Source: an uncultured Bacteroides sp.
GTDB taxonomy: Bacteria; Bacillota; Clostridia; Oscillospirales; Acutalibacteraceae
Direction of reading: 5' to 3'
Assembly: GCA_964480285.1 (NCBI GenBank)
Contig: CAYZPT010000001.1
Coordinates: 1 to 47,212 of the forward strand
Length of the DNA: 47,212 nucleotides
Shown here: in pieces, positions 11,781 through 30,652 of the stretch
Numbering within the stretch: the first letter of the stretch is position 1
Layout: every line of letters starts with the position of its first letter
Program-made: the position numbers and the translations under genes
The notes under the pieces: generated by a model
The model's input: only the letters and a program-made list of their open reading frames with translations
What the model was told of the DNA's origin: nothing
The model's database searches: none

Positions 11781-11808
11781 AAAAACCCGTCCGTTGAGGA
11801 CGGGTTTC
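11781..11808. terminator. Bidirectional terminator (original terminator of the tRNA locus)
   Basis: AAAAACCCGTCC-GTTGA-GGACGGGTTT. Confidence 0.8.
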
Positions 11809-11812: not shown

Positions 11813-12023
11813 TGGCAGAGGTATAACAACCTGTCAAGTCATGGTAGTATTTGCTTCGCAAATCTCCACCTTAAAGACTTGACAGAACGTTGTTACGGGT
11901 TAAAAAGCATTTTAAACCTGTAATAAGAACTCACCCGTTTGCAAAATCAAAGATTTTGAACGGGTACCCGAGAACCTTGTTACTTCGTAATAAGGATTCG
12001 AACCTTAAATGACGGAGTCAGAG
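11813..12023 (-). pseudogene. Displaced 3' half of tRNA-Gln (distal att site), interrupted by a 167-nt insert
   Basis: 11813-11826 and 11990-12023 are identical to parts of the tRNA at 30753-30796 (anticodon loop to CCA). Confidence 0.9.
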
Positions 12024-12076
12024 CGTAGAACATTTATTCTAAAAGCCGCACCGTTGAGCCGTTTTTTGACCTTGCA

Positions 12077-12205
12077 GTCTCTGAAAAATCTCTCAAAAAA
12101 TTCTGAAGGCAGATGACCAGAATCGTCTGCCTTTTGTAATATCCTTTATTAATATATACGCTCTCAGCCTTAATGATTTTTCGCAGGGTCTCTCAAAAGT
12201 CACTT
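12077..12205. promoter_or_regulatory. Putative integrase arm-type repeats, left end
   Basis: GTCTCTGAA, ATCTCTCAA, GTCTCTCAA and GTCACTT resemble the GTCACTCAA repeats at 30546-30645. Confidence 0.55.
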
Positions 12206-12214
12206 TTCTGCGGA

Positions 12215-12718
12215 CTACGAAACGTAATCAAAAATCATTTCGGCAGTTTTTAGTGAAAGCTTTGATACATTGCCGTTAGTCAGGAAATCATTAACGTTCC
12301 CCGGATTGAGGTGCAAATCAGTATAAATGCGATAATTGGATATGTGCTTTGCCGCCTGCATTTCCCTGATTCTCGGAAGCATAAGATTTTTAGTGTGTTC
12401 TTCATTCTGAATTCGGTTTGTTTTTACCTTATATGAAGTATAAATCTTTTGATACCTTTCGGAAAGTAAGTTGTGTTCAAGAGCATTCTCAACGTTGCTT
12501 ATGAAATTCAGTTCATTCAGCGCGTTTACTATTCTGGCATTCTTAAACTTGGCTAACTGTTCATCATCAAGCGTCATTTTAGCATACAGAACCAGAGGTT
12601 CAAGCAATCTAAGATTATGCTCAACCTCTTTTTCAAGCTTTCTGACGGAAGAAGAACCACATAGCGAAAGCTCGGTTAAATATGCTTTTAAATAACCTTT
12701 GAACGTTAAGGGCTTCAT
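12215..12718 (-). CDS. Hypothetical protein with C-terminal HTH-like region; probable partner of the nucleotidyltransferase
   Basis: ATGA overlap with the upstream gene; ISNYRIYTDLHLNPGNVNDFL is HTH-like. Confidence 0.65.
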   Translation of the reverse strand: MKPLTFKGYLKAYLTELSLCGSSSVRKLEKEVEHNLRLLEPLVLYAKMTLDDEQLAKFKNARIVNALNELNFISNVENALEHNLLSERYQKIYTSYKVKTNRIQNEEHTKNLMLPRIREMQAAKHISNYRIYTDLHLNPGNVNDFLTNGNVSKLSLKTAEMIFDYVS

Positions 12719-13233
12719 TTTTTGAACTCCTCTTTGTAATCGTTATAAAAATCTCTTAATTCTCGTGCGGAATAATCGCTTGTCATACCTTCAATCGCTA
12801 AATCAACCAACTCGTCGAGTTTATCCCAGTCAATCTTCTGAACAACGGTAGGCTGATGTATATCTTCAAAATCCTGCTCTCTTCCGGAGGCGAGCTTTGA
12901 AACGACTAAGTCTTCTAAAGACAGGGTGTAAAAGTCGATTAGTTTCGTTTCCAAATCAATTTTATCTGCTCTTGAAGAATAATCATCTGCAAAACAACCA
13001 ATGTGAGCAGTAACATTCATATTCATATCGTATTTAGGCATCAGGGAGATAAGTTCATACGCAGTACAACGCAAAATATCAATGTCATGCGTGGCTCTGG
13101 GAATAAGACCCATAATCAACATTGCGCCACCGCCAACAATATAACACTCATATTTTATTTTGCTGCTTCCGTACGTAAAAAATGCATCTCTGTCAAATGC
13201 CAATAATCTTGAAAACAATTCTTCTCTGTCCAT
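12715..13233 (-). CDS. DUF6036/AbiEii-like nucleotidyltransferase
   Basis: IVGGGAM...RATHDIDI and DLVVSKL...GREQDFEDI motifs. Confidence 0.8.
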   Translation of the reverse strand: MDREELFSRLLAFDRDAFFTYGSSKIKYECYIVGGGAMLIMGLIPRATHDIDILRCTAYELISLMPKYDMNMNVTAHIGCFADDYSSRADKIDLETKLIDFYTLSLEDLVVSKLASGREQDFEDIHQPTVVQKIDWDKLDELVDLAIEGMTSDYSARELRDFYNDYKEEFKK

Positions 13234-13392
13234 AAATACTCCATAAATCAAAATTTCAATAATACTATTATTCAGTCATTAATTTCATTATATTCTATTA
13301 TAAATCACATGTCAAGAGTGAGCTTAATAATAATCAATAAAGAAAAACACCCACCTCATATGAAGCAGGTGTCCTCTTTGAGATACTAAGCT

Positions 13393-13586
13393 CTAATCCC
13401 AGTAAAACGGACCAAAGCCACTGTAATCAAAATCGTCAACATACGGAGCTTTCTTATTCTTCTGAGCTCGCTGATTCTGCTTGTTGGCTTTGTAAGCTTT
13501 GTTGTTAGGATTGTGCTGATTAGCATAATTATCTAACTGTGCTTGAGTGTGCGTTTTACCTGAAACGCCATTTTTTTCTTAGCCAT
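13393..13586 (-). pseudogene. Small Asn/Gln-rich protein (ANQHNPNN type), split by a one-base shift in an A7 tract
   Basis: RBS AGGAG and ATG 13586. Frame 0 stops after 17 codons. One extra A gives a 64-aa protein: MAKKKNGVSGKTHTQAQLDNYANQHNPNNKAYKANKQNQRAQKNKKAPYVDDFDYSGFGPFYWD. Confidence 0.7.
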
Positions 13587-13892
13587 AGCTTATATCTCCT
13601 TTCTCCACAGAAAGGTACATTTGATAGTTTCACGAGGTTTAACCTTTCGGCAACCGGGGACCGTACCTCCTGATTAGCAATGCACGCAGTATAGCCGTCC
13701 ACCGAGGGACCTATTTAAGCCGCCAATGCCCTACAAATCTTTTGGACATTAATTTGCAGAATACCCTGCATTAACTATTATCTGTGGGTTAGGAGCACAT
13801 TTATAGTTTACCTAGTCCAGTCAGTAAAGAATAAATATTGCTAATATTTATATATCACATTTTCAAATAATGCGCAAGCCCCTGGAATTGCC

Positions 13893-14323
13893 GCAAAAAT
13901 CATATTATGGAGTATCTTACCGCATCAAGTGTATACAGAAGAAAGAAAAGTCCGGAAAAAAGGAATAAAAAAACGGATACTAATAATGGGTTATATAGTC
14001 ACGCTTTCCCTCGATTAAAACGCAGTGTTTGCAAGGGTTTTAAGCGCTGTTTTTCGCTTAGCAAGGGTACAGTACCACTATCCGCAGTTTGGGGGTTGAA
14101 AGCGTGACGGTAAGGGCTTTGATGTAACGCTTATAAGCGTTTTAAACCCAGTGTTTTCAAGGGGTTTGTGACGCGATATTGAACACTTAAGGTAAAACCC
14201 CGCCTAGTGCCGTTTTCGGGGTTTAAAAGCGTTTCATAGACATTTAAAACGGGCTTATTATTGCAAAATCATCTTATGGAGTACCGTGCCGCACCAGATG
14301 TGGACAGAAGAAAGAAAAGCCCG
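13893..14323. repeat. Pair of ~60-bp imperfect direct repeats (13893-13954 and 14263-14323)
   Basis: GCAAAA(A)TCAT(A/C)TTATGGAGTA...CCGCA...ACAGAAGAAAGAAAAG(T/C)CCG present twice. Confidence 0.85.
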
Positions 14324-14669
14324 TTTTTTCAGCGTGAAAACGTACATATGATTTTAAATGGTTATTGTCCGTAATATTGGACCTTAATGTAGTTATTATT
14401 TACACGTGCGTTCATATATGTTACATTGACCTCGAAAGGAAATATTGCATACGGGGCAATGTGCTTCCGCGCAACGGGAACAGTAGGCAACAACTACAGG
14501 AACTTGCTGACATTCCCATTGCAGTATAACTGATTTTACAAAGCAACTATAATAATATAACAAAATAAGATAACATTAATCGGGGTTAGCTATTGAGGCA
14601 ATCCTGATTATTTCATTTTATATATATTGTGAATTTGTTGCATATATTGCAAATAATTGATAAATATTG

Positions 14670-14698
14670 TTGACATTTTGAAAATAATTTGATATTAT
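14670..14698 (+). promoter_or_regulatory. sigmaA-type promoter of the GHKL operon
   Basis: TTGACA-17 nt-TATTAT with TG upstream of the -10 box. Confidence 0.65.
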
Positions 14699-14730
14699 TA
14701 TGGCGTAACAACATTAAAGGAGTGCAAAAT

Positions 14731-14955
14731 ATGAGCGAATCAAAAAACGAAAAGTTTGTAAGAATTGCGGAAGCAAGAACCAATAAAATTATTGATATGA
14801 TTAGGTTGTTGGGTAATTGCTCGAACAGATCTACATACGACTATTCAAAAGATGATGTTAAGAAAATTTTTGGAGCTATAGAAAGCGAATTAAAACTTGC
14901 TAAAATGAAATTTGACGCTCCAGATGATTCATCTTCAAAGTTTAAACTCAGATAG
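14731..14955 (+). CDS. 74-aa helical hypothetical protein, first gene of the operon
   Basis: RBS AAGGAG; MSESKNEKFVRIAEARTNKIIDMIRLLGNCSN... Confidence 0.8.
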   Translation: MSESKNEKFVRIAEARTNKIIDMIRLLGNCSNRSTYDYSKDDVKKIFGAIESELKLAKMKFDAPDDSSSKFKLR

Positions 14956-14965
14956 GAGGTCCATT

Positions 14966-16873
14966 ATGGCTGAATGGTATTTTACTTCAAATGACGGAGG
15001 AGAAGTAAAAGGTATAAACGATTCAGGTGTTTCTACATTTAGAGGAACGCCTTTAAAATCATTAGCTAGAGAAATATGTCAAAACTCTCTTGATGCGGTC
15101 GATGACAAAGGTAAACCAGTAATCGTTGAATTTTCCGCATATAAAATTCCCACTACATCGTTCCCTGGGGCAGACTATTTAAAAGATACTTTTGAAAGAT
15201 GCATTGATTTTTGGAAAGATCAGACAGCAAAGACTACTAAAGAGACTTTCAAAAATGCAATTGATAAAATCAGTAGCAATGAGCTTAATATGATGAGAAT
15301 TAGTGATTTTAACACTAAAGGTTTAACTGGTTCTAAAAGAATTAAAGACATTAATACTGATTGGTACAGATTAATAAAATCAACCGGTTCTTCAGATAAA
15401 AAAGGTCCTGCAGGCGGTTCTTATGGTATCGGTAAATATGCTCCGTTTGCCTGTTCTGATTTTTTAACGGTTATTTATAATACCTATGATATTGAAGATC
15501 AATTTGCGTATCAGGGCGTTTCAAGACTGGTTACTTTTGAAAGAGAAGACGGTTGCACAACAAACGGTATAGGATATTTAGGAAACGAAAAGACTCAACC
15601 GGTCTTTGAGGCAATTCAATTGGATCCTTCTTTTTGTCGTAGTGTTGGAGAATATGGAACTGATATTTTTATTGCTGGTTACAAGTATAGTGAAAACGAA
15701 AGAGAACGTTGGGAAGATAAAATAGTTATTTCTGTTTTAGATGGTTTTCTTGGAGCAATATGGAAAAACAAACTAATAGTCAAAGTTGGAGATATTGAAA
15801 TAAGCAAAGCTTCACTTAACGATTTAATGGATGCTTATAGAGATGAACTCAACGATAAATATGTAACCGAGTACTATGATGTGCTCACTTCAAGCAAGAC
15901 TGTTTGGTTTGAAGAAGAAAACTTTTTTGGCAACGGAAAAGTTAGTTTTGGTGTGCTTTTATCTGATTCAGAAAAAGAATATCATCGCAAAGCTGCTATG
16001 ATTAGACAAACCGGAATGAAAATAAAGGATGCCGATAGGATTTCTACATTTGTTCAATTCGCTGCAGTAATGTTTATTGAAGGCGATAAAATAAACGAGA
16101 AACTCCGTGACATAGAAAACCCTGAACATACTGAATGGCAACCTGAACGTTCTGTTAGACCGTTAGAAGCAAAGACGCTTGTAAAAACCATTAATGACTT
16201 TATGAAAGAATCTGTGTCAAGTTTGATTGAACAAGATGCAAAAGATGAAATGGACGCAGTTGGTGCTGCAGACTTTGTTCCGGACATTCCTGAAGATTCT
16301 GAAAACAAAGAAAAAGATGAAGCTATAACTGATAAGGTGTTAAAGATTGATAAACGCACGGTGTCATCAAGAGCTCTTTCTGGGAACGCTTCTAAAGGCA
16401 ATACTCAAGCCGAAACAACAGAAAACGGCGATGTTGAGCCTGATAATGACAGCGATTATGAAGATTGGTATCATGATGATGATCCCCATCCAGAACCCGG
16501 ACCAGAACCGAAACCTAAAGGTCCAGTAAAAATAGTTGATGGTGAAAGAGAAGTAAAACGGACAATGGATGTAAAACCTTCTCAGTTTATACCCTATTGT
16601 TTAGATGCAGACCACGGAAAATATGCTGTTCTTTTCACGCCATCTGTAAGCGGAACCAACGGAAATATTCGGCTGTTCTTATCTGGTGAAACGGAGAGCT
16701 TCTCCGCTCCAATTATCTCAGTAACAAACGCTGATGGAAGTTCAGTAGAATTTAACAACAATAAAATAATAGGATTAAACTTTGAAAAGGATGTTCCTAT
16801 AAAGCTAATGATTGACATCGATTTCTATGATTATTGTTCAATGGAGGTGAAGGCAAGTGCAGATAAGGCATAA
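14966..16873 (+). CDS. GHKL (MORC/MutL-like) ATPase-domain protein
   Basis: N box REICQNSLDA, G1 ISDFNTKGL, G2 GGSYGIGK, G3 GTDIFI; acidic/Pro-rich linker near the C-terminus. Confidence 0.8.
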   Translation: MAEWYFTSNDGGEVKGINDSGVSTFRGTPLKSLAREICQNSLDAVDDKGKPVIVEFSAYKIPTTSFPGADYLKDTFERCIDFWKDQTAKTTKETFKNAIDKISSNELNMMRISDFNTKGLTGSKRIKDINTDWYRLIKSTGSSDKKGPAGGSYGIGKYAPFACSDFLTVIYNTYDIEDQFAYQGVSRLVTFEREDGCTTNGIGYLGNEKTQPVFEAIQLDPSFCRSVGEYGTDIFIAGYKYSENERERWEDKIVISVLDGFLGAIWKNKLIVKVGDIEISKASLNDLMDAYRDELNDKYVTEYYDVLTSSKTVWFEEENFFGNGKVSFGVLLSDSEKEYHRKAAMIRQTGMKIKDADRISTFVQFAAVMFIEGDKINEKLRDIENPEHTEWQPERSVRPLEAKTLVKTINDFMKESVSSLIEQDAKDEMDAVGAADFVPDIPEDSENKEKDEAITDKVLKIDKRTVSSRALSGNASKGNTQAETTENGDVEPDNDSDYEDWYHDDDPHPEPGPEPKPKGPVKIVDGEREVKRTMDVKPSQFIPYCLDADHGKYAVLFTPSVSGTNGNIRLFLSGETESFSAPIISVTNADGSSVEFNNNKIIGLNFEKDVPIKLMIDIDFYDYCSMEVKASADKA

Positions 16874-17708
16874 GTACTATACCTATCCGATTGTAGCCAA
16901 CAACAGCGATTCGTTTGAAAACGTGCAATTCGAAACAGATGCAGAATATTGCACCGAAGGATACGATGTGAAATTTACTCTAAGTGCAAGCATAAATGAT
17001 GAAAGCATAAAGGAGTTAATTAAATCTGGAAAGGCTTCATATGTTCATCATTTTGAATGTCCGCAAACATGTTTCAGAACAGCCGTTACCACTGACGAAG
17101 AAACTACTGAATATAAAATACATGAAAGTTTAATATGTGGTACTCTGCAAATATGCTCTTTAATTGTAGCTATTGATGATATTATCGGTTACAAAAGCGA
17201 TAATTTTGCTTCGCTTTATAGAGGCTTTCCGTACAACATAAAAAAAGGTTGCGTATTAGGAATTGGAAAGCAACTTGAAATAGATATAGAAAAAGAAAAA
17301 GAGGATTATGAGAACACTTCATCCATCTTCTCTTTGTTGCCCAATAAAGATGAAAACGAAACCACAATGAAAGTTGAAACAGGGAGGCACAAAATTCAAA
17401 TTATTGTTCCTGAAAAAAGCTATAACCAGTATAGGAACTTAAGAGCCAATCTTCAAATACAACCTATTATGCATGCTATGATTCTTATACCTGCATTGGT
17501 TCTTGTTTTAGAAGAATTAAAGAGCTCAAAAGATGATCTTTATACTTATGAAGACAAACGCTGGTTTAAGGCGTTAAAGCTGACTTGTAAAAGGTTTAAT
17601 GTTGAATTAACTGAAGAAAACATACAAAATATTGATTCATACGATTTGGCTCAAAAGATTATGGACTCTCCCACAATCAAGGCGCTCGAATTCCTTGCCA
17701 CAAATTAA
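16857..17708 (+). CDS. Hypothetical protein translationally coupled to the GHKL ATPase
   Basis: GTG start with GGAGGTG RBS overlapping the upstream gene; 283 aa, no motif recognised. Confidence 0.8.
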   Translation: MQIRHKYYTYPIVANNSDSFENVQFETDAEYCTEGYDVKFTLSASINDESIKELIKSGKASYVHHFECPQTCFRTAVTTDEETTEYKIHESLICGTLQICSLIVAIDDIIGYKSDNFASLYRGFPYNIKKGCVLGIGKQLEIDIEKEKEDYENTSSIFSLLPNKDENETTMKVETGRHKIQIIVPEKSYNQYRNLRANLQIQPIMHAMILIPALVLVLEELKSSKDDLYTYEDKRWFKALKLTCKRFNVELTEENIQNIDSYDLAQKIMDSPTIKALEFLATN

Positions 17709-17721
17709 GGAGGTGCATTGA

Positions 17722-18438
17722 ATGTTTGTAAAATTTATTTCTGAAGAAGACCTAGAAAAAGCACGTGCTAATTACAAAACGATTTCTAAGAATATTCTTA
17801 TTAAAGGTAATACAGACTTACAATCCATGTTCAACGATGAAAACATAATAAGAAATACTTCTATTGAAATTGAGGATTTTACTCTGGATATGTCACCAGA
17901 AAATCGAGTAAGCTCTGATTTTGAAAACGTGAAAAGAGTTTATGAACACATGAAATCCCTTTCTGTTTCAAAAGCTTCAGACGAAAGAATATGGGTAGCA
18001 TATGCATTGTCCGAATTTGTTGATTATATGAAATATCGTTGGATGCCAGACGGGGTTGGAAAGCGAATGGATAGATATTTCTTTTCAAGTAGCAGAAAGC
18101 GTGCTTTATTTAGACATGGTATAGCAAGGCTTTGGTGGATAGGATATTCAACATATGATGCTGATCGGGCAGATCCATATGAACTAACCGAGTTTGCTCT
18201 GAGTCATGACCAAGACTTTATTAACCAAATTCTAGATATTGGCTTTTCGAGCAACAAAACCATTTCCAGTGCTGTAATAACCGCTTTATATGATGCGGAA
18301 AAGGCTGGAGTTACCATAAGTCGTGATTTGGTGCGTGAAATCAGCAAATATGTAAATCTTCTTGGAGGCACATATGTATTAGATTGCTTGTCTAAAGAAG
18401 AAATATATGATAAGATAAAAGTAAGGATAAATTTCTAA
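17722..18438 (+). CDS. DUF6339-like protein
   Basis: ASDERIW...YMKYRW...RYF...RHGIARLWWIG pattern. Confidence 0.7.
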   Translation: MFVKFISEEDLEKARANYKTISKNILIKGNTDLQSMFNDENIIRNTSIEIEDFTLDMSPENRVSSDFENVKRVYEHMKSLSVSKASDERIWVAYALSEFVDYMKYRWMPDGVGKRMDRYFFSSSRKRALFRHGIARLWWIGYSTYDADRADPYELTEFALSHDQDFINQILDIGFSSNKTISSAVITALYDAEKAGVTISRDLVREISKYVNLLGGTYVLDCLSKEEIYDKIKVRINF

Positions 18439-18452
18439 CATAGGTGTAAATA

Positions 18453-21400
18453 ATGGCAGAATGTTTTAATTGCAATAGTATAATTGAAGATAATGCCGTC
18501 GAATGTCCTCTATGTAAATCTCCAAATAACATAATGAAACAAAATTTCATTAAATATATTGGTGATAGAGAAAGTTTGGCAGGATATCAGAAATCATATA
18601 AATTGGTATTGTTAAAATACATTATTGAATCGTTAGACCAACGCAAGGAAGCGCTGGTCTCTGCTGTTATTGCTAAAATTAGAAACTTTTATTTAAGTAG
18701 ATTTAATCAAGGATTATTGCCGGATATTGATGTTGATGAAAGAATTAGAAACATAGAATCTTCAAATGATTACGATGTTTTTGCTGTAATAAAGAATCAG
18801 CCTTATCACGTAATAAACGCAAAAGGCTTTCTTTATATCAATAGAAACTCAGAAGGAGACTTAGTGTTTGTATTCAATGAAGAAATTTCAAATTCTTTAA
18901 GTCAAAATGAGTTTGAAAAATTGTTGGATATTATTAATTATAAATTAAAACTCTATTATTCTACAAAGTTACATGATTCTATAGATTATACTAGTAACTA
19001 TGACGACATATCAATAACTGATAGCTCTCCCAATTCTCTACCGCAACAAAACGAAAATGATCTTGATAACAAGCTATTGAATACTGAGATTATTAACATT
19101 GACTCCTTAAGTACTAGATCAAAGAGAATTTTGCTTGGGCATAAAATTAATAATATTAGAGATTTGATTGCGTTCGACAATAATAACGGAATAGAATCAT
19201 TTAATATTCTTGGTTCAACAACATATCATGCTGTTATATCAGTTATTAATTCATACTATGCTTCAATAAAGTCTTTTCCTTTGAATAAACGATTAATAAG
19301 ACATCTGTTTTGTGATAAGTCCTATGCGAGTTTTGTTAGATACTGTCAAAACAACAAATTGAAAACCATAGAAGATTTGCAAAATTTTGATTTTGACCGT
19401 CTTATTGTATCGTTTGGTTTTGGAGAAGGTAAAATTAATCAGATTAAAGAAAAATATGCCGCAATTGTTAATGGTACAAACGAAAAAACAGACCAAAATC
19501 AAAATAGAGGAATAGTAAAGGTTTTTGAGGAAACGGTTATTATTGCAGAAAACAACAAGGCCCTTCCAGTTTCAATATTATCTCTAGTTGGTTTAAGTGG
19601 CAAAACCATTCTCAAATTATCTGATCAAGGATATCATAAACTAGAAGATTTGGGTAATGTTGGAAGAACTCAATTATCTAGATTATTTGGCGTACGAAAC
19701 AGCGAGAAAATATTCAACGCAATAAATGAGTTTTCCAAACCATTAATTGTTATAGCTAACGATGTTCTAAACTCCTTAAAAACTGAAAACAGTTTTAAGA
19801 TGTACGTTATGCGTTCAGAAAAACTTTCATTACAGGAAGTTGCAGATATTTTTAATTGCACAAGAGAACGAGTGAGACAAGTTGAAGTGAAACTGTCCAA
19901 CAAACTTAAACCGCTAATGCTTGGTCTCATAGAAAACTATTTAATCGATAATAATACCTGCTTTATTTCAGAAGAAAGAATTCTTGAAATATTTGATGAA
20001 GAAGACTTTGACAAAGTAATCATACACGTCTTAAAGAGCTGTGATGAAATTGAATATTTGAACTTTGCCAAATTGTTTTTAATAAAAAAAAGCGAATATC
20101 AAGACACATACAGTACTCTTTGTAAGGTAGCTAGAGATTTTATTGGAGATGGAAGAAACATCTTTAACGAATTAGATGCGTTAGAAGAACTGCTATCAAA
20201 TCTTGACTTTGAATTTATGAATGTGGATCTGTTTTTTGATTTGCTCATAGAGATGAATGCATATTTTTATGGGGATTTTGTCGCGTTTGAAAGACAAAGT
20301 TATTCAAAATTATGTGTAAAAGTTATTGAAAAAGAATTCAAAAACGGGATACATGTTTCAGATGATGACGAAATGAACAAGTTGCGCACCTTAACAATAA
20401 GCCAGTATGGAAACATACCGTTCCCAGAAAAGAATAGGGCTATTGCAGCAGCTATTTCAAAGCATTTGATATTATGTGGAAGAGGAACACTTACCTCAAT
20501 AAAAAATTTAAACTTTGATTTTTCCACAATTGAAAGCATTTCCAAATATATAGACGAAAGCCAACAAACATCATTTTACTATAGAGAATTGTTTGATGAG
20601 TTTCAAGGTGTTTTGTTTATTACATCTAATATTACAAACTATAATTGTCTTCATGGAGTATTGCAATATTGCTTTCCTGAAAAATACATATATTCAAGAG
20701 ATTTCGTTACGAAACTTGAATTTGATGGAAAAATAGAACCTCTTGAAAATCGCATTAATAGTTTTATTACAACCACAGGACATGCCGTAGGTAAAGATGT
20801 GTTACTTAAGGAATTCAAAGGGTGTTCTGATGTAATGATTTTCAATACAATCAACACAAGTAAACGATTAATTCAGTGGGACTATAATAGTTTTAATTCT
20901 GTTGATAATATAGCAATGTCTGAGGCTGAGTATTCTATTATTGCAGAAGGTCTTAATGTTATAACAAGTGAAAACAACGGATATTGTAGTGACTATTTAG
21001 CATTCAACTATGTTTGTAATAGTATTCCCGATTGGGTTATAAAAAATAGCATTACAAATAAATCCAATTTGTTTTATGTTTTATCAAATGTTTTTTACGA
21101 TTTATATGATTTTAGACGTCCACACATTGGCGAAAAAGGAAAGTATCCTTCGCTAAATACAAAAGATATTATTTTAAACTTGTTAGAATCTTCCAATATT
21201 ATCTCATATCGCTCTTTTTTAGATATAGCAAATCGTTTGGGTTGGTCAAGCATTACAACTGCTGCAACATTTACGGATATCGAGAGTTCCTATATACGTA
21301 TTGACGAAGATACTTATCTTCGTAAGAGCTTATTTATTATTTCAAATAGTGAAAAAGAAGAACTCGAAAACTATCTTGCTAAATATATAAGAGAAAACCG

Positions 21401-21761
21401 CTATCTTTCTTTGATTAATTATGACGATTACGACGAGCTTCCAACCGTTAACGATTGTGAATGGAATGAATTCTTGTTTGAATCAATTGTACAGAATTAT
21501 TTTGATGATTATCGTATTGTCCAACCAAAAGCAAAAGATAGAAGGTATGTGAAAAGTATAATAGTTGATGCACATTCTAAATATAATTCCATTGATGAAC
21601 TTGTGAGAGATTCGTTGGAATTAAATAACGTTTCTACTATTTCTGAGAGAAACTTACTTTCTTATATGATACTTAATGGTTTCACTAGAAAGGTTATTCC
21701 AAAAGAGATGTATATTTCAGATTGTTTTTACTATGAAGACGGATCCTTTACGGTAAAATAA
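18453..21761 (+). CDS. Large DNA-binding protein: zinc ribbon, RNA-polymerase alpha-CTD-like repeats, sigma70 region-4 HTH
   Basis: CFNC...CPLC; LSTRSKRILLGHKINNIRDLI and LSGKTILKLSDQGYHKLEDL; LSLQEVADIFNCTRERVRQVE. Confidence 0.75.
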   Translation: MAECFNCNSIIEDNAVECPLCKSPNNIMKQNFIKYIGDRESLAGYQKSYKLVLLKYIIESLDQRKEALVSAVIAKIRNFYLSRFNQGLLPDIDVDERIRNIESSNDYDVFAVIKNQPYHVINAKGFLYINRNSEGDLVFVFNEEISNSLSQNEFEKLLDIINYKLKLYYSTKLHDSIDYTSNYDDISITDSSPNSLPQQNENDLDNKLLNTEIINIDSLSTRSKRILLGHKINNIRDLIAFDNNNGIESFNILGSTTYHAVISVINSYYASIKSFPLNKRLIRHLFCDKSYASFVRYCQNNKLKTIEDLQNFDFDRLIVSFGFGEGKINQIKEKYAAIVNGTNEKTDQNQNRGIVKVFEETVIIAENNKALPVSILSLVGLSGKTILKLSDQGYHKLEDLGNVGRTQLSRLFGVRNSEKIFNAINEFSKPLIVIANDVLNSLKTENSFKMYVMRSEKLSLQEVADIFNCTRERVRQVEVKLSNKLKPLMLGLIENYLIDNNTCFISEERILEIFDEEDFDKVIIHVLKSCDEIEYLNFAKLFLIKKSEYQDTYSTLCKVARDFIGDGRNIFNELDALEELLSNLDFEFMNVDLFFDLLIEMNAYFYGDFVAFERQSYSKLCVKVIEKEFKNGIHVSDDDEMNKLRTLTISQYGNIPFPEKNRAIAAAISKHLILCGRGTLTSIKNLNFDFSTIESISKYIDESQQTSFYYRELFDEFQGVLFITSNITNYNCLHGVLQYCFPEKYIYSRDFVTKLEFDGKIEPLENRINSFITTTGHAVGKDVLLKEFKGCSDVMIFNTINTSKRLIQWDYNSFNSVDNIAMSEAEYSIIAEGLNVITSENNGYCSDYLAFNYVCNSIPDWVIKNSITNKSNLFYVLSNVFYDLYDFRRPHIGEKGKYPSLNTKDIILNLLESSNIISYRSFLDIANRLGWSSITTAATFTDIESSYIRIDEDTYLRKSLFIISNSEKEELENYLAKYIRENRYLSLINYDDYDELPTVNDCEWNEFLFESIVQNYFDDYRIVQPKAKDRRYVKSIIVDAHSKYNSIDELVRDSLELNNVSTISERNLLSYMILNGFTRKVIPKEMYISDCFYYEDGSFTVK

Positions 21762-21785
21762 AAAGGCAACATATGTTGCCTTTTT
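21760..21785. terminator. Bidirectional terminator between convergent operons
   Basis: AAAAAGGCAACATATGTTGCCTTTTT perfect palindrome. Confidence 0.8.
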
Positions 21786-23847
21786 ATATATCTGCATTGT
21801 TACCAACCGAGAAATCCATTTCAAAATGTTCATCATCTAGCTTAGTAAACCTAATACTATTTCTTCCATATTCGTCAAGATGTTCTTTAGTAACAAGTCC
21901 ATCGTTATCCATGCCTATTCTCTCTCGAATATAACGACCAATCTCAGAATTATCAAGAGGCGTAGTAAGTGCTTTATCGCCAGATTGTTCGACTCGCATT
22001 GTAAAGCATTGACCATCATCGGTTAAAACCGTAAAATGTCTCTTGTTTAGTGGGAAAAATCCACTTTTGGCAATTTTTGATGGTAGCGGAATATATGCTT
22101 GATATCCATTTCGACCTTCTCGCTGTCCCCAGTTAAGACCGGATGTTTTTGTAACAGTTCCGTTTTTGGAAATAAGCGGAAGGTCAACATAAATGTCTTT
22201 TTCGCTTGCTAATACAACGGATTCGTAACTTTGAGTTGGACTGTTTTTATAAATTCTGATATAGTTTTCTACTTCATTTGAATCACAATAGATGCTTCTG
22301 CCTTGAATTTTGTCACAATAGGCCATTGCATCGCCAGGATCACACTTCGCCATGAATTCACCACATCCTTGTGAAAACGCCTTTTGAGTGTAGTTTGCTG
22401 ATCCGGAAAAGCATTTAAATGGTTTTCCGTTCTTCATCCAGAGATATATTTTTGAGTGAACAGGAGGGGTTTGGTACACATATGAACAATAAAAATCTGA
22501 AAGGTCTGGCTGCACCTGATTCTGTTCTTGAATTGCCTTAAAGCCCGTATGAGAAAGTTTGTTTAATCCGTCATAAGGACACATTCCAACCGTAAGACGG
22601 ATGTTTATGGGTTGTAATCCAAGTTCTTTTATTTGTTGTATATGATAAGACACCATTGCGGGAGAAGCATATGCTGAAACTATGCGCAATTCATTTGCGC
22701 CTTCTCGTATGGGATTAAACAAAACTTCATCTTCAAGGTTGCTATCAAATTGCCACTTTATATCATCGTCGCCGTAGAAAAGGTATTCTGTAGCGTTACA
22801 CTCAACACTTGGATACTCTTCTCCTGCGAAAGAATTTAGAATTGCTTCAAAGATTATTTTAGCGCCTTCGCAAGGAACCGCCATGCCTATTTGTTTTCTC
22901 ACGGATTCTTTATTTCCGTAAAAAACAAAATCGTCTGGGAAAGTTTGCAATCTTGCTCTTTCTCTGTTCGTTAAAGCTCTATTTTCAGACCAGTGATAAA
23001 TATGAGTTCCTCCGCCACCGCTACCGGTAACGGTATATGCTGGCTTACTTGATTCAAGTCTTTTATATATTTGGCTAATTCTTGCTCCAACAACATTTAG
23101 TTGAAGATGTTCTGGAAGTTGTGCAGTAAAAGCATTTTCTCCCTCTTTAATGTAACTTAATCTTTCCATGACAGTCTGAGATTGTCTGGTCGGTTCGTTA
23201 TTTGCGGCATTATCCGGAATAGGAGGTTCCTCAATAGCTTGTTTACACGTTTTGATTTGGTACATCTCTGGTGAAGGAACCTTAAAGTCTATATTTTTCT
23301 CTTTTCTAATATCGTTACGAATGCCAACAATTATAATTCTATGCCGCGCTTGTGGTATACCATATTCTTCAAACTTGTATAAATGCGGGTATAATGTGTA
23401 ACCTGCATTTTCCATTTCTCTTAATATTTTAGAAAAAGTTTTTCCTTCGTTTGAATTTAAAAGCCCCCCTACATTTTCTGCCAAAAACCATTCAGGCTGG
23501 AATCTGGTTAATGCTTTAACCCCGTACGTGTATAAAGGACCGTAAGATCCTTCGATACCTTTTTGCTCTCCAACTTGACTATAGTCGTTGCAGGGAAATC
23601 CAAAAGCTAAAGCATTTATTGTTTCAAGTTGAGATAAATCCAGTTCTCTGACGTCTCCTTCATAAACGCTATTTCGACATTCTGGACAAATATTATTTCT
23701 GTATGTTTCACAAGTGTTATGATCATAATCGTTCGCCCACTTATGTGTTATTTTATACTTACTGTTTCTACATTGAGCATGAGTAGCCCCCCAAGCAATT
23801 CCGCCTGGGCCACAAAAAAGTTCACCTAATTCAAATGTTTTTTCCAT
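21784..23847 (-). CDS. dcm: DNA cytosine-C5 methyltransferase fused to an NgoFVII-family PLD restriction endonuclease
   Basis: MTase motifs LFCGPGG, GFPC, ENV, QARHR, RERARLQTFP, QIGMAVP; C-terminal half has PLD HSKIY...GSANYT and NWGQR...AYIPL. Confidence 0.88.
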   Translation of the reverse strand: MEKTFELGELFCGPGGIAWGATHAQCRNSKYKITHKWANDYDHNTCETYRNNICPECRNSVYEGDVRELDLSQLETINALAFGFPCNDYSQVGEQKGIEGSYGPLYTYGVKALTRFQPEWFLAENVGGLLNSNEGKTFSKILREMENAGYTLYPHLYKFEEYGIPQARHRIIIVGIRNDIRKEKNIDFKVPSPEMYQIKTCKQAIEEPPIPDNAANNEPTRQSQTVMERLSYIKEGENAFTAQLPEHLQLNVVGARISQIYKRLESSKPAYTVTGSGGGGTHIYHWSENRALTNRERARLQTFPDDFVFYGNKESVRKQIGMAVPCEGAKIIFEAILNSFAGEEYPSVECNATEYLFYGDDDIKWQFDSNLEDEVLFNPIREGANELRIVSAYASPAMVSYHIQQIKELGLQPINIRLTVGMCPYDGLNKLSHTGFKAIQEQNQVQPDLSDFYCSYVYQTPPVHSKIYLWMKNGKPFKCFSGSANYTQKAFSQGCGEFMAKCDPGDAMAYCDKIQGRSIYCDSNEVENYIRIYKNSPTQSYESVVLASEKDIYVDLPLISKNGTVTKTSGLNWGQREGRNGYQAYIPLPSKIAKSGFFPLNKRHFTVLTDDGQCFTMRVEQSGDKALTTPLDNSEIGRYIRERIGMDNDGLVTKEHLDEYGRNSIRFTKLDDEHFEMDFSVGNNADI

Positions 23848-24160
23848 TGTCAATTTCCTTCTTATGGTTAATTAAAAAATCTATTTCATTTTGTATATGC
23901 TTTAGCTCTTCAATGTCAAGAAGCTCTGTGTTTTTTAAATTTTGGTATGAATTTATTAGCCCAATGGCTTTAGAAGCATCAATAATATTAGAATCGTAAA
24001 AACGAAGAAGGGTGATTACATCATCAAATCGAGGAGAGAAGTTACCGTTTTCAATTCTTGACAGTCGGCTATTTGTTATTCCAGTTGCAATTGTAACTTC
24101 GCTCATCGAACACCCACGACTGCAACGCAATGCTGCCAAATAATCATTTATGCTATTCAT
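23831..24160 (-). CDS. XRE family HTH regulator (controller-like)
   Basis: SMSEVTIATGITNSRLSRIENG; overlaps the MTase start. Confidence 0.88.
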   Translation of the reverse strand: MNSINDYLAALRCSRGCSMSEVTIATGITNSRLSRIENGNFSPRFDDVITLLRFYDSNIIDASKAIGLINSYQNLKNTELLDIEELKHIQNEIDFLINHKKEIDNGKNI

Positions 24161-24187
24161 TATATCACCATAGAAATGTTATCATAT

Positions 24188-24239
24188 TTGCTGCGAAAAT
24201 GCAATAAAAATCCTAAAAATCGCTGCGAAATCGCAGCAA
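24188..24239. promoter_or_regulatory. Putative XRE operator boxes
   Basis: TTGCTGCGAAAATGCAATAA and GCTGCGAAATCGCAGC related palindromes upstream of the XRE gene. Confidence 0.55.
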
Positions 24240-24364
24240 CATCGCAATTGTATGAGTTTCTGTCCAAATAATGATACTGCCGAAAATAACAAATTGAAAA
24301 GCAAGAATTTCAATGTTATAATATAAAAACACATAATATCAAAACATATGGAGAAAAACTTAAT

Positions 24365-25147
24365 ATGAATAATGATTCAAAATACACCGATTTAAAATCA
24401 ACCTTAAAGGCTGTGGGTAAAAAAGTTTTTGTTGATTTCTATTATGATTTTAAGGATTCTCAAATTACAACCGATGAATTAGCTGAAAAGCTTTTTACAA
24501 ATAACCCTTTGTCAATATCTTCAGAACAACGTTTTAGGATTCCAAGAGCAAGACATATTTTTGAAACGAATCAGCAAATCGATGCTTTGAACATAATTAT
24601 TGAAAGCGGCAGACTCGCCTCTGATACAATAGAAAAAGCAAAAGAAATACTGACTAATGAAGTTACGGAACAGAAATTAATCAAAGAACATGAAGAAGAA
24701 ACAGAATTCATTCAGCTGGTTAATTCTGAAGTTGTATATAATAGCATTGAACAGGCTGAATATAACAAAAGCCAGAAAAGGCCTAAGTACGCAACGAGAA
24801 CTTCTGTACAACCGATAAGAGATATCAAGGTTTCAAGAAACGCTTTGTTCATGGCAGATTATCTATGTGAAATAGATAATTCTCATTATGTGTTTAAAAG
24901 AAAGAACAGTAACATCAACTATACAGAACCGCATCATCTGATTCCTCTATCTGCACAAAGAGACTTCCCGGATAATAGTTTAGACTGCGAACAAAACATT
25001 GTTTCATTATGTTGTAATTGCCATAAACAAGTCCATTATGGATCCGAAATTGATTCGATTCTTAAGCCGCTATATGAAAAACGATACAAATATTTGAAAG
25101 AAATCGGTATAGATATTACGTTTGACCGATTAAAAAAATACTATTAA
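24365..25147 (+). CDS. HNH endonuclease, McrA-like
   Basis: CEID..H...YTEPHHLIPL...NIVSLCCNCHKQVHYG. Confidence 0.85.
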   Translation: MNNDSKYTDLKSTLKAVGKKVFVDFYYDFKDSQITTDELAEKLFTNNPLSISSEQRFRIPRARHIFETNQQIDALNIIIESGRLASDTIEKAKEILTNEVTEQKLIKEHEEETEFIQLVNSEVVYNSIEQAEYNKSQKRPKYATRTSVQPIRDIKVSRNALFMADYLCEIDNSHYVFKRKNSNINYTEPHHLIPLSAQRDFPDNSLDCEQNIVSLCCNCHKQVHYGSEIDSILKPLYEKRYKYLKEIGIDITFDRLKKYY

Positions 25148-25163
25148 TTAATAAGGATTATCT

Positions 25164-25532
25164 ATGAAAAGTATTAACTACGAAAAACCGACGCAGGAGC
25201 GATGTGGTGATACGCCTGCATATCAGGAATACAAAGAGAAGAGCAAAGGTCGGAGTGCTGATGATAACGAGATAATCCAGCGCGAGATGATGGTTATCTT
25301 TTCTGAATTCGCTGCGCTTGATTGTTCTCATGCTGATGATTCTGCACAGAAACTTGTTGCAAAGTTGCAGCAGTTTATCACTGATAATTATTATACCTGT
25401 ACCGATGAAATCCTCTCAGGGCTCGGAAAAATGTACGCCGCCGAAGGCGAGTTCAAAAAGAACATTGATTCGTTTTCCGGCGAGGGCACTGCCGATTTTG
25501 TTTCGCAGGCAATACAAATTTATACACAATAA
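25164..25532 (+). CDS. TipAS antibiotic-recognition domain protein
   Basis: AQKLVAKLQQFITDNYYTCTDEILSGLGKMY...FKKNID..GEGTADFVSQAI. Confidence 0.85.
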   Translation: MKSINYEKPTQERCGDTPAYQEYKEKSKGRSADDNEIIQREMMVIFSEFAALDCSHADDSAQKLVAKLQQFITDNYYTCTDEILSGLGKMYAAEGEFKKNIDSFSGEGTADFVSQAIQIYTQ

Positions 25533-25599
25533 TTCATTCCCGTTTGGTTGTAAAAACCGAACGGGAATTTTGTTTGGTCGCACTTTCGTTCTAAAAAAC

Positions 25600-25628
25600 T
25601 TGACAAACAGCAAAACATTTGTTAGAAT
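25600..25628 (+). promoter_or_regulatory. Consensus sigmaA promoter
   Basis: TTGACA-17 nt-TAGAAT with TG extension. Confidence 0.75.
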
Positions 25629-25940
25629 AATACTGCAAACTGAACACGGAAAAGTCGGCAGATGGTTTCAATTTTACATAGCCCGATTATTTGTAAAAAT
25701 GATATGCTGCCCGCTTATATTTCATGGACATCATTGAGTTATCACCGGACTGGCTCCGGGGTGTTCCGATGCAGGCGATATGGTCTGAGCATGGATACAC
25801 GACTTGACATTGCATGAATAACTGTTCCTGTACCAAGGGGATAGTCTGTGCAAAACTAAGTCAGTGTGTTTCATCGCTCGGATTTTTTATTGCTGTAAGC
25901 GGGTCGGCAGAGGGCAAATCTGTAATAAAGAGGTGAAACC

Positions 25941-26255
25941 ATGTCTGATTACTATGAGCGCAATCAGCCGAAGCCGAGACCGCATTATTTTTCGCTGCCG
26001 AATGAGATTTTCCGTGAAGGTTTGACGCCATATGAATTCGTTGTCTATGCTTTTCTTGTCAGTGCAAGAGACCCGCGTAAAGACCTAAGTTACTGGTCCA
26101 TAAAGAACATAGCCGAGAACTGCGGTATGTGCAAAAACACTTGCAGAAAAGTGCTTCACTCACTTGAGAGCAAGGGTTACGTTGACATTTCAACTCGCTA
26201 TTTTGACCATGTTCAGCAGACCAATATCTACACCGTTATACGTGAGCATTTCTGA
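25941..26255 (+). CDS. Winged-helix protein (HTH_36-like, replication-initiator N-terminal type)
   Basis: YFSLPNEIF..LTPYEFVVYAFL...WSIKNIAENCGMCKNTCRKVLHSLESKGYV...TNIY. Confidence 0.78.
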   Translation: MSDYYERNQPKPRPHYFSLPNEIFREGLTPYEFVVYAFLVSARDPRKDLSYWSIKNIAENCGMCKNTCRKVLHSLESKGYVDISTRYFDHVQQTNIYTVIREHF

Positions 26256-26492
26256 TTTTTCGGCTATTTTTGACGAGTCGAAAATCAAGCAGGATAAAGG
26301 GGTATGTCGCTCAGTCGCGCCAAACCCCGAAAAACACCGTACGGCAACGCCGTTCGGGGGTTAGGGTGGTATGTCTGCTTTGAAAAATGGATATCAATTT
26401 GACATCCGATTTCAATTTTTTCGCAGTATAACACGCTGTTTCGGGATGTCTTTTTGACATCCTTATAACCTTAAGAAAAGGAAACAACAAAT

Positions 26493-26711
26493 ATGAAAAA
26501 AGATTCTTCCGAAATTAAGAGAATCGCCAATCAGATTAGTTCGCGGGAAGGGAAATACTTCTTCAACGCGAAGGAAATCTGCACGCTGTTCGGTATCTGC
26601 AAGGATACCGCGCGCGATGTTTGTAAGCACGTCACTCCCGTTACTCACGGCGGAATCCGCAAGTATTATATCGTTGATATTCTGGAGTATTTTTATTCTC
26701 TGAAAGATTAA
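26493..26711 (+). CDS. Small HTH protein, excisionase-like
   Basis: FNAKEICTLFGICKDTARD...RKYYIVDI, directly upstream of the integrase. Confidence 0.65.
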   Translation: MKKDSSEIKRIANQISSREGKYFFNAKEICTLFGICKDTARDVCKHVTPVTHGGIRKYYIVDILEYFYSLKD

Positions 26712-26783
26712 AAATTTATCTGGATATATCAAAGTCTCCGTGGTATTGTTTAGCTTGCCGCAGGGCAGAAAGGATGTGATATT

Positions 26784-27941
26784 TTGTCGGAAAGAAAGCA
26801 GTATGCGCTCTACGATAAAGACGGTAACTTTATAACTTACCGAATGACAAAGCGCATTAAAAATGAGCAGGGCGAGTACGATGTGCTGACTGCGAGGTCT
26901 AAAAAATCCGCGAAGGAATGTAGGCGCAGACTCGATGAAAAAATCGCACAGTATTATGTTGAACAGGAGGAACGCAAACACAAAGGCGTGTTCCCCGATA
27001 TGAAGTTCGGAAAGTTCGCTGACAACTGGTACAACCTTACCATTAAAGACGCGAACTGCAGTAAGGTCAACAAAGACAATTACCGAGGATATGTTTACAC
27101 GCATATCATTCCGTACTTCGGCGACTTCAAACTCTGCGACATCACCGAAGATGACTGCCAGCGTTTCATGAACAGGTACAAAGGCTACTCAAAAAAGTTC
27201 GCGATGAAACTCAGGATGACGCTGCGGCGAATTCTGAGAAAAGCGTTGAAGCAAAAACTGATTCCCGACAATCCCGCCGAAGACGTTGTGCTGCCGATGG
27301 TTACCGAAGGACAGCGCCGTCCGATAACCGACGAAGAACGCGCAATGATTCTTGAAACGGCGAAGACTCACTACGCAGGCACAATGGTGATGACCATGCT
27401 CTACTGTGGACTGCGCCCCATCGAAACCCGAAGGATGAAATGGGACTGGGTTGATTTCGAGAACAGCATTCTTACCGTAGGCAAATCCAAAACGAAAGCC
27501 GGAACGGGAAGAAAAATTCCGATACCGAATCAGTTGAAAGTTGCGCTGATGGAACATAAGCTCAAAGGTCAGAACGACGAATATGTGTTCGTTAAGTTCA
27601 AGGATTACAACAAGCCGCTTGACACCAACGCCTTCTATCACGGCTGGCATAACTTCTGCCGCGAGATGGATATCGCAAACGGCGCGAAGGTGTACCGCAA
27701 TCAGATTGTGGAAAGCGTGCTGGCTCCCGACCTTGAGCCGTATCTGCTGCGCCACACGTTCTGCACCGACTGCCAGGCAGCGGGAGTGCCGCTGAACGTT
27801 GCAAAAGAACTGATGGGACACAGCGACATATCTGTAACAGCAAAAATCTATACGCATATGGTAGACGAAGTGTTCGAGCAAAACCGCAAACGCCTCGCCG
27901 AATATGCGAATGAAAAAGAAGAACTGTCAAAGATGGCATAA
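26784..27941 (+). CDS. int: Tyrosine recombinase/integrase
   Basis: GLRPIE, KTKAG, YLLRHT (HxxR variant), LMGH, IYTH catalytic motifs; SAM-like core-binding domain. Confidence 0.93.
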   Translation: MSERKQYALYDKDGNFITYRMTKRIKNEQGEYDVLTARSKKSAKECRRRLDEKIAQYYVEQEERKHKGVFPDMKFGKFADNWYNLTIKDANCSKVNKDNYRGYVYTHIIPYFGDFKLCDITEDDCQRFMNRYKGYSKKFAMKLRMTLRRILRKALKQKLIPDNPAEDVVLPMVTEGQRRPITDEERAMILETAKTHYAGTMVMTMLYCGLRPIETRRMKWDWVDFENSILTVGKSKTKAGTGRKIPIPNQLKVALMEHKLKGQNDEYVFVKFKDYNKPLDTNAFYHGWHNFCREMDIANGAKVYRNQIVESVLAPDLEPYLLRHTFCTDCQAAGVPLNVAKELMGHSDISVTAKIYTHMVDEVFEQNRKRLAEYANEKEELSKMA

Positions 27942-28038
27942 AAGAATCAAGGCAACGGATTGCTCCGTTGCCTTTGATATTTGTCTGGACTTTGCATTCG
28001 AGTTGTGGTATTGGTTTGTGTTGCAAAGGAGTGATAAT

Positions 28039-28509
28039 ATGGCAATACTTAAAGACCTTTACAACGGAAACGTTAACCCGTGTGAGCTGGAACACCTTAA
28101 CACCAGTGAGGACTATAAAACGGCAATGTCGCGTGTTTGTGAAGCCTGTGAGGAGCTTGAGAAAACACTCACGGATGTTCAGAAATGGCTCTTTGAAAAG
28201 TATAATAAAGAGCGCGATTTGATGTCGCTGATAGTTGAAGAAGAAATCTTCAAAGAAGGGTTCTCCCTCGCTATGAGGATAAAAGAGGAGGTTAATGATA
28301 TGACTGAAATTTCAATACACAGAGATTTTGATAACCTGCCGTCAATGCTGACTGTTGCGGAAGCAGCGGATGTGCTTCGCGTATCACTCAATCAGATGTA
28401 CTATCTCATAGACAAAGACAACACTATTCCCGTGCTCAACCTCGGCAGGAAGAAGCTCATCCCAAGAGATGAACTGAAGGAGTGGATAAAGAAGAACTGC
28501 TATAGGTAA
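28039..28509 (+). CDS. DUF6809-like protein in frame with an HTH_17 excisionase (internal start at 28300)
   Basis: MAILKDLYNGNVNP...FKEGFSLAMRI then GAGGAGG RBS and ATG 28300; LTVAEAADVLRVS...LGRKKLIPRDEL. Confidence 0.75.
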   Translation: MAILKDLYNGNVNPCELEHLNTSEDYKTAMSRVCEACEELEKTLTDVQKWLFEKYNKERDLMSLIVEEEIFKEGFSLAMRIKEEVNDMTEISIHRDFDNLPSMLTVAEAADVLRVSLNQMYYLIDKDNTIPVLNLGRKKLIPRDELKEWIKKNCYR

Positions 28510-28555
28510 AGTAAAAACTCCCCTGCATTCATGCAGGGGAGCAACATATTAAGTT

Positions 28556-28777
28556 TTAACCTCTTGGTGGAAACGGGTCGTTGCCGTAAGAATTCTTCTC
28601 ACGGATTTTGCCGTTTCTGCCGTGAATAATTAACTCAGACTTATCGCGCATAGCAAGTTCACGTCCAAGCTGAATTGCTTGTGCTTGTGTATCTGTGATG
28701 TAACTTGCTCTTGAGTTACCTTCACCTTTAACTTGCCATGAACCATCAGGTCTTTGAGTTATGTGTTTATTTTTCAT
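28556..28777 (-). CDS. DUF2188 family protein
   Basis: HITQRPDGSWQVKGEG...TQAQAI...ELIIHGRNGKIREKNSYGNDPFPPRG. Confidence 0.9.
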   Translation of the reverse strand: MKNKHITQRPDGSWQVKGEGNSRASYITDTQAQAIQLGRELAMRDKSELIIHGRNGKIREKNSYGNDPFPPRG

Positions 28778-28796
28778 ATAGTTTTCCTCCAATTCA

Positions 28797-28907: not shown

Positions 28908-29113
28908 GAATGATACACCTCCTTGATATGATATTTAATATCACAAAAAATGCGTGCTAATTATCCTTCCTGAGCACAAATCTCATATTGCAATAACGAA
29001 AAGGATGTGTTATAATGTCTATGCGAAAGTGACATTTGCATTCTTTGTTATCGCTTTTGTTACTCTGCACACACCGAGCTGGCACTCGGTGTTTTTCATT
29101 TTTTGTGTTATTA

Positions 29114-30646: not shown

Positions 30647-30652
30647 AAGAGA

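Follow-up and report, generated by a model that had tools for sequence, protein, structure and literature searches.

Two tandem gene-less hairpin modules of a dispersed repeat family interrupt a displaced tRNA-Gln half in a Clostridia genome

Introduction

In the DNA analyzed here (the window, the whole stretch of 47,212 nucleotides), an island has integrated at a tRNA-Gln(CTG) gene, and the displaced 3' half of that gene is interrupted in its T-arm by a 167-nt structured insert. What is the insert, and how did it come to lie there? The original prediction offered two answers: either the ancestral gene carried a T-arm intervening sequence, possibly a new intron-like RNA, or a tRNA-targeting miniature element inserted later.

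Results

Anatomy of the tRNA-Gln(CTG) locus

The intact tRNA-Gln(CTG) gene is located on the minus strand at 30753..30826, as evident from ARAGORN, the Rfam tRNA model (61.9 bits), and the sequence itself. The displaced copy opens precisely with the 7-nt anticodon loop (CTCTGAC, 12023) and ends with CCA at 11813. By sequence it comprises two minus-strand parts, the half running from the anticodon loop to T-stem CCTT (11992..12023) and the rest of the tRNA 3' end with acceptor strand and CCA (11813..11824). A terminator-like hairpin (11783..11807, no strand assigned; sequence) separates the displaced tRNA end from a convergent metallo-hydrolase/rubredoxin gene (10826-11767). Between the two att copies lies a low-GC island of ~18.7 kb (12024..30752; GC, Pfam), the borders of which were set by the repeated tRNA half. 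Its GC content is 0.31-0.40 across most of its length, and it carries methylase/restriction, HNH, and AAA genes as well as a plus-strand gene for a tyrosine integrase of 385 aa (26784..27941; PF00589, 1e-24). A tyrosine integrase together with a low-GC island between tRNA copies is the usual picture of anticodon-loop integration. The integrase was likely responsible for the crossover in the anticodon loop, not for the 167-nt insert, and the 3' half of the intact gene appears to have been supplied by the island. Short repeats of the GAGAC/GTGACTC type were seen close to both island ends (window 12080-12200 and 30545-30645) and also behind tRNA-Gln in many relatives; those by the island ends are likely integrase arm sites.

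It had been proposed that excision would regenerate an interrupted tRNA and could thereby lock the island in place. An interrupted excision product would indeed follow from this anatomy, but the lock is probably weak because the genome also encodes tRNA-Gln(TTG), which can read CAG by the wobble rules.

The 167-nt insert consists of two modules

Removal of 167 nt restored the exact tRNA 3' half, and TTAT was present at both junctions. All four stems originally named were found in the insert. It has no internal ORF; a 104-aa TTG frame (plus strand, 11568-11882) only overlaps its end. Positions 11813-12004 folded at -62.1 kcal/mol as RNA (z -5.40) and at -37.2 as DNA (z -6.14), with 0/200 shuffles as low in either case. 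A contig of another study (run X2) spans 11770-12019 with three differences from the window, two of which compensate each other within the first hairpin (11982, 11988). Because this separately obtained contig carries the same insert, the insert is not an assembly artifact.

A third TTAT, unremarked in the original prediction, lies between two halves of the insert (11991-11925 and 11924-11825). Each half follows the same design, opening with TTAT and a small hairpin, continuing through A(A)CAA(G/C)-GTTC into a long hairpin, and closing with GGTT(C/G)TTAT. Module A (67 nt, 11925..11991, minus strand, drawn with the cut at TT|AT) was recognized by separate matches to query positions 1-71/72 in many genomes. 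It is composed of a small hairpin with a GAA loop, AACAAG, a long hairpin with a TTT loop and a 4-nt bulge, and a TTCTT end; its covariance-model (CM) score of 85.5 bits was reached with module A itself in the training set. Module B (100 nt, 11825..11924, minus strand), matched separately by query positions 98-171, has a longer first hairpin, AACAAC-GTTC, a CTGTCAAGTC/GACTTGACAG stem with a GCGAAGC apex, and a GGTTGTT end. Copies of B occur both by themselves and together with A, at tRNA-Gln as well as in ICE-like loci.

Matches to the insert at E<=0.01 were obtained in 54 of 300 family genomes, many of them weak, and one genome spans both halves. BLAST revealed no second copy of the insert in its own genome, and a descriptor plus CM search found two other family members there, on contigs C20 and C71. 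The insert is two tandem head-to-tail gene-less hairpin modules of one dispersed repeat family.

Modules are absent from working tRNA-Gln genes

Thirty-five matches to tRNA-Gln(CTG) were collected across the genus: 22 full genes, 12 displaced halves, and one degenerate other. Modules interrupted five of the 12 displaced halves and none of the 22 full genes (Fisher p 0.003, with kin that are not independent of each other). Modules are excluded from working tRNA-Gln genes. The five interrupted halves carry different module sets, and different inserts of 26-134 nt were seen at one and the same position in displaced halves. Another set, metagenomic loci selected for module 0 (described below) plus three earlier loci, contained 17 full genes, 44 halves, and three edge cases with an intact 3' end, none of them interrupted.

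These counts bear on the idea that the T-arm holds a new intron-like RNA, removed from pre-tRNA-Gln by splicing. Exact exon restoration and a P1-like hairpin spanning the 5' junction agree with it. A G-ending register of the insert exists as originally drawn, being the one of five registers that combines C at -1 with a terminal G, and C at -1 is known in one class of tRNA introns (10.1101/2020.01.27.920355). In the same source, known tRNA introns of the kind compared sit in the anticodon loop. Recurrence of the insert in otherwise intact tRNA genes was found neither among the 22 full genes nor, as the exact direct-insertion pattern, in any of 400 family genomes. Different inserts occupy the same spot, most family members end in C-TTAT rather than G, and the two halves occur separately, mostly at sites away from tRNAs. 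Rfam gave no group I match for the insert at the gathering threshold or at E<=10; its fold consists of local hairpins without P7-type strands on the sense strand. The insert shares with group I tRNA introns the precise tRNA interruption, the junction hairpin, and the possible terminal G, but it is modular and dispersed, does not lie in functional genes, and has no catalytic core of the P3-P7 type. Splicing is therefore a most improbable explanation.

Module 0 and the history of the site

A further unit, module 0, duplicates the tRNA end and was present in seven of the 22 full genes and in two halves. It runs from the tRNA end through a terminator and an antisense T-arm to either a GAA loop or a longer body, and finishes with a GAATC(C/G)TTAT-like sequence. 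In five of the seven full genes the next element was A, B, or a shorter module, together with a worn repeat of the tRNA end; in the other two, which have the long form, no module followed. The long body was also considered as Clostridiales-1, for which the Rfam search gave no support. Arrays at tRNA-Gln mix and match, occurring as 0+A+B, 0+B, and 0+C. In run X3, B and the downstream flank are those of the window, but 78 different letters stand where A has 62; the resulting 83-nt unit equals module 0 of L237 and L245 in length, a match by length count only. Run X5 has module-0 sequence preceding B.

Since other samples carry other sets of modules at this site, loss of module 0 from a three-part array, 0+A+B, is the most likely event in the window. 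Such an array would first have stood behind the tRNA and have been displaced when the island integrated at the anticodon loop; module 0 would then have been lost precisely in the window and module A in X3. Deletions at tRNA-Gln arrays seem to use both TTATTAC and GTAACA repeats, and slippage at short repeats could account for the precise losses. Direct insertion of modules into the dead tRNA half is the alternative history. The earlier proposal of a miniature element is supported as such. It had been cast as a single, tRNA-targeting, late arrival, however, whereas there are two modules, they are dispersed and not tRNA-specific, and they were probably already in the array behind the tRNA.

Units of related appearance trail other tRNAs of the same genome (G000). 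Behind tRNA-Pro(TGG), Pro(GGG), Ser(GCT), Ser(TGA), and Ser(CGA), a terminator is followed by an antisense copy of the tRNA's own T-arm (C88 ~7750-8125, L475; C26 ~15610-15900, L476; C112 ~5200-5800, L477; C17 ~23727-23900, L478). The Pro units additionally comprise a folded body and repeat the tRNA end. Pairing of the antisense copies to the tRNA stops near position 65. Rfam returned no match for the Pro/Ser trailing units of G000.

A dispersed and covarying repeat family

A compound pattern recovered 124 loci in 9/64 of GTDB scanned, from which ~890 are estimated overall. The loci were titled Clostridia, Acutalibacteraceae, Oscillospiraceae, Parvimonas, Sedimentibacter, and Eubacterium. Five genomes contained 30, 10, 1, 21, and 27 module copies (reversed-pattern control, 0-1), the 30 copies being in one complete Parvimonas genome. 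The family is often tandem, with arrays of up to 11 units in Parvimonas genomes. Its distribution is patchy: under strict filters, the CM search was positive in three of 150 genomes of the phylum.

Few modules lie at tRNAs. ARAGORN placed a tRNA within 400 nt of only seven of 123 canonical modules, and among 29 loci from the family-genome search, two were at tRNA-Gln and six near another, uninterrupted tRNA. Neighbors are housekeeping genes, which paired modules flank, as well as terminators, ICE-like genes, and other repeats.

Several recurring positions were seen. In L013, L015, L018, L096, L104, L134, and L171, a module separates the ribosome-binding site from the ATG of a spoVT/AbrB-like start; the start behind the module looks fragmentary in L015 and L018, and L155 is an empty form of this site. 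In L034, L035, and L038 (~1500-1575), an HTH gene has a B-type module in its TATACT promoter box; since the first bases of the module repeat the target's ATACTG, the box is preserved. Modules in L014, L016, L028, L012, and L024 belong to ICE-like loci beside PemK/MazF and serine or tyrosine recombinase genes.

The stems covary, contrary to one of the refuting outcomes named in the original prediction, though they do so at dispersed non-tRNA sites. In an alignment of 28 hand-picked sequences of the 124 plus the window, 92% of stem cells were paired, 13 of 24 pairs showed two-sided change, and the covariation score was 0.338 compared with 0.163 when shuffled. Four variable pairs followed through 121 modules had a Watson-Crick fraction of 0.89-0.94 (0.39-0.54 when shuffled). 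The end motifs were fixed by the search pattern and are uninformative in this respect.

Long-hairpin loops were predicted to be triloops in 91 of 130 cases (54 of them C(TTT)G), with TTT and GNA triloops dominating. GNA triloops are stable in DNA. Top-strand G-T pairs (20) were no commoner than A-C pairs (18), and G-T showed no strand bias. The triloops and the missing G-T bias point to folding of the DNA type; a comparison of top- and bottom-strand folding singled out neither strand. Movement through an RNA copy, by reverse splicing or with the help of a reverse transcriptase in the manner of miniature retroelements, might be read from the sense orientation at tRNA-Gln, the likewise stable RNA fold, and the frequent location of modules after terminators. 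Group IIC introns are positioned after terminators. The triloops and the lack of a G-U excess do not suit an RNA intermediate, and neither group II ends, D5, nor a match to a ribozyme family was found, nor a reverse transcriptase gene among the neighbors scanned. We regard such a route as improbable.

At the module ends, the left 4-mer varies, whereas the right end is constantly TTAT. The two target bases left of AT were TT in 122, CT in 11, and others in 12 of 145 cases, and 14 of 204 left junctions lacked the A. One orthologous Parvimonas site is filled in two genomes and empty and length-exact in two; the empty alleles have G where the filled ones have A. In this Parvimonas comparison, two of five orthologues at the first site and five of five at a second site were not cleanly comparable. 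Because the right end is constant, the left end varies, and the empty site has no extra bases, TTAT represents the target and not a duplication. The family is dispersed, multicopy, arrayed, stem-covarying, free of target duplication, and present or absent at orthologous sites.

Could the modules spread and be lost without any enzyme, by hairpin-assisted slippage, template switching, and gene conversion, and perhaps be kept as terminators? The repeats apparently used by the deletions at tRNA-Gln and the T-run that precedes 39 of 121 modules are in line with this, as is the outcome of the enzyme searches given below. It would leave unexplained, however, how modules with identical ends and a fixed target reached dozens of unrelated sites, and why mismatches are conserved. 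Orientation relative to the upstream gene is also mixed (34 same, 25 opposite, 64 uncalled). Enzyme-free spread is accordingly rated as rather unlikely.

Searches for a mobilizing enzyme and for catalogued relatives

Five Y1 queries against 415 module-bearing loci (828 kb) detected no cognate transposase with module ends. The only Y1 matches in these loci were one weak match and one RAYT of the genome studied here, which has GTAG repeats of its own. This genome has two RAYT genes (C71:8181-8615, L488, and C132:3413-3895, L040), one intact and one with an internal stop. Both are accompanied by GTAG repeats unlike the modules in sequence, and one module lies ~30 nt behind the intact gene. PF01797 was detected in two of nine Parvimonas genomes, with unrelated IS200 ends, in a search that is insensitive to RAYTs and missed the intact one named above; a RAYT query gave 0/9. 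Clustering of 1072 ORFs near modules revealed no enriched mobility gene, and no long gene-containing element with module ends was seen among the loci examined. None of the 20 small GIY-YIG loci of Parvimonas examined had a module; they have another repeat instead (for the Ssn system, see PMC11893778). The Ssn-like GIY-YIG genes of Parvimonas (L500-L508) are flanked by their own hairpin repeats, and one such repeat (upstream in L508) has the same CAAATCTTTGATTTG apex as module A.

Tyrosine recombinases deserve separate mention, since the same modules might be recombined as folded single-stranded DNA in the way of attC or CTXphi attP sites, possibly by a host Xer-like enzyme. Three paired bases (AAG/CTT) flank the inferred TT|AT cut and are followed by a 3x3 internal loop and a bulged stem, and modules are gained and lost like cassettes. 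A similar 325-aa Xer-like recombinase occurs in G000, G301, and G305, and in the complete genome G301 it is the single PF00589 match. The attC box consensus is RYYYAAC/GTTRRRY. Such boxes and cargo genes are absent from the modules, no module-linked integrase was found, and the outer arm has only ~5 bp. Module stem sequences vary freely between lineages, which Xer arms are not known to do. This explanation is unlikely, though less so than enzyme-free spread.

Rfam searches with the window, the insert region, 11 module-bearing loci, nine tRNA-Gln loci, and seven regions of the same genome gave no module match; only tRNAs and one unrelated dfrA-dnaX match scored above gathering. No RtT match was obtained for module-0 loci. 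A phage collection yielded two partial matches and a plasmid collection weak or no matches, while a loose viral pattern gave 43 loci, about half of them chance matches. In a microvirus genome (L039:1532-1588), which gave one of the two partial phage matches, the long hairpin of B was seen without module ends directly after the major capsid gene. No paper contained two of the three motif strings, and the literature listings and abstract openings searched gave no description of the family; most subscription journals, ISfinder, and preprint supplements lay outside this search, as did the REP tables of 10.1101/279083, which could bear on novelty.

Discussion

How might gene-less units of this kind move? 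On balance we lean toward tandem modules of a dispersed family that move as single-stranded DNA circles of 65-100 nt, cut and rejoined within TTAT by an enzyme from elsewhere. In the contigs examined, neither circles nor excision junctions were seen. The internal AACAAG is complementary to both junctions save one C-A mismatch. A single internal guide, (A)ACAAG, would pair in turn with (C)TTAT at either end, leaving the C-A mismatch beside the cut, and the joined ends would give a nearly fully paired rod; circles of module A or B are indeed predicted to fold as rods. Guide-target pairing beyond +3 into the right flank was not significant at +4 and weak at +5. At three junctions in displaced halves, the left side is CCTT|TA and the right side TT|AT. 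They tentatively favor cleavage at TT|AT over a cut after TTAT; the left junctions lacking the A fit either.

Since a module end would recreate the target, arrays could grow. In the arrays L379, L387, L393, and L218 (G301, G304), internal junctions are often GGTT(A/T/G)TTAT and the last unit retains GGTTCTTAT; mutated internal junctions may trap arrays. The T-stem CCTTAT of tRNA-Gln would lend itself as a target, with insertions tolerated only where the half is displaced or where module 0 supplies a duplicate end. The T-arm of the displaced half, AAGGTTCGAATCCTTAT, is similar in sequence to the module foot AAGGTTC...GGTTCTTAT, and this resemblance of AAGG...CCTTAT to the foot would explain the hot spot.

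The mobilizer is most likely an HUH (Y1-like) single-strand transposase acting in trans. IS200/IS605 TnpA and TnpA-REP work by guide-selected cleavage of single-stranded DNA next to a hairpin, and TnpA-REP cuts 5' and 3' of one hairpin in a guide-directed manner on single-hairpin substrates (PMC8266576, 10.1101/279083). Movement may draw on a passing transposase, an unrecognized HUH protein, a tyrosine recombinase on folded DNA, or enzyme-free slippage.

As judged from 10.1101/279083 and PMC8266576, the modules resemble the PATEs of IS200/IS605 (IS608/ISDra2 peel-and-paste) in having no terminal inverted repeats, no target duplication, a T-rich TTAT-type target, end hairpins, and a junction-complementary guide 5' of the hairpin. 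They differ in that two hairpins share a single AACAAG guide, in place of separate left and right ends each with a guide; the whole unit is 65-100 nt long, a predicted rod as a circle, and forms head-to-tail arrays. Their junctions suggest a TT|AT cut, whereas IS200/IS605 PATEs are cut 3' of the target tetranucleotide, and no cognate tnpA was found. The one shared guide is at odds with the two-end dimer model of IS200/IS605 and counts against this assignment. With REP/REPIN/BIME repeats and their RAYTs, the modules have in common an intergenic, multicopy, clustered occurrence and a lineage-specific hairpin sequence; one hairpin can direct cuts on both sides in the REP/RAYT system (PMC8266576). 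The GT[AG]G foot is missing from the modules, however, the arrangement is direct rather than inverted, and no RAYT found carries the module as its own repeat, those of the same genome having the other, GTAG-type repeats. The modules work most like IS200/IS605 miniatures and REP repeats, yet fail defining features of both.

Other comparisons fit less closely. Classical MITEs, in contrast to the modules, have terminal inverted repeats and target duplication. Integron attC cassettes and CTXphi attP are conserved in structure above sequence and have a short paired triad, an unpaired center, a bulge, and tandem cassettes gained or lost singly. The modules match them in the precedence of structure over sequence, in triad, unpaired center, and bulge, and in single gain and loss in tandem, but they lack IntI, an attI platform, cargo ORFs, and the R-box consensus and are dispersed in chromosomes. 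The E. coli tyrT 178-bp repeats (RtT) are tRNA-linked repeats. Module 0 shares their layout, as do the units behind Pro and Ser tRNAs of the same genome, but it is absent from the window, and A and B are free of tRNA sequence and lie mostly away from tRNAs. Unlike the repeats associated with Ssn (GIY-YIG; PMC11893778), the modules do not flank the ssn genes examined.

The modules might instead form their own class of minimal mobile DNA, with rod-like single-stranded circles of 65-100 nt, one guide, an enzyme outside the known Y1 transposases (an unrecognized HUH or the host's Xer-like protein), and a mechanism common to the tRNA-trailing units, in which the antisense T-arm would be a guide reprogrammed for each tRNA. 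We hold this for clearly less probable than mobilization of the modules by an enzyme from elsewhere, though for somewhat more probable than recombination by a tyrosine recombinase. If true, it would explain mechanistically how RtT-like repeats arise and offer a compact, programmable system for single-strand insertion.

Our verdict is that the modules are a variation on known non-autonomous hairpin DNA elements, and the intron reading is rejected. A would-be new tRNA intron is thereby removed, and a widespread repeat family, for which no catalogue entry turned up, stands in its place. If mobile as we infer, the modules would be among the smallest mobile DNAs, with a single guide, and they are abundant in genomes without a detected Y1 transposase, as in most module-rich Parvimonas genomes. 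Damage to island-left att sites can mean that the tRNA would be broken by excision. Selection is directly visible at the tRNA-Gln locus, where insertions survive only in non-working copies, and this locus ties the family physically to tRNA-trailing units of unexplained origin.
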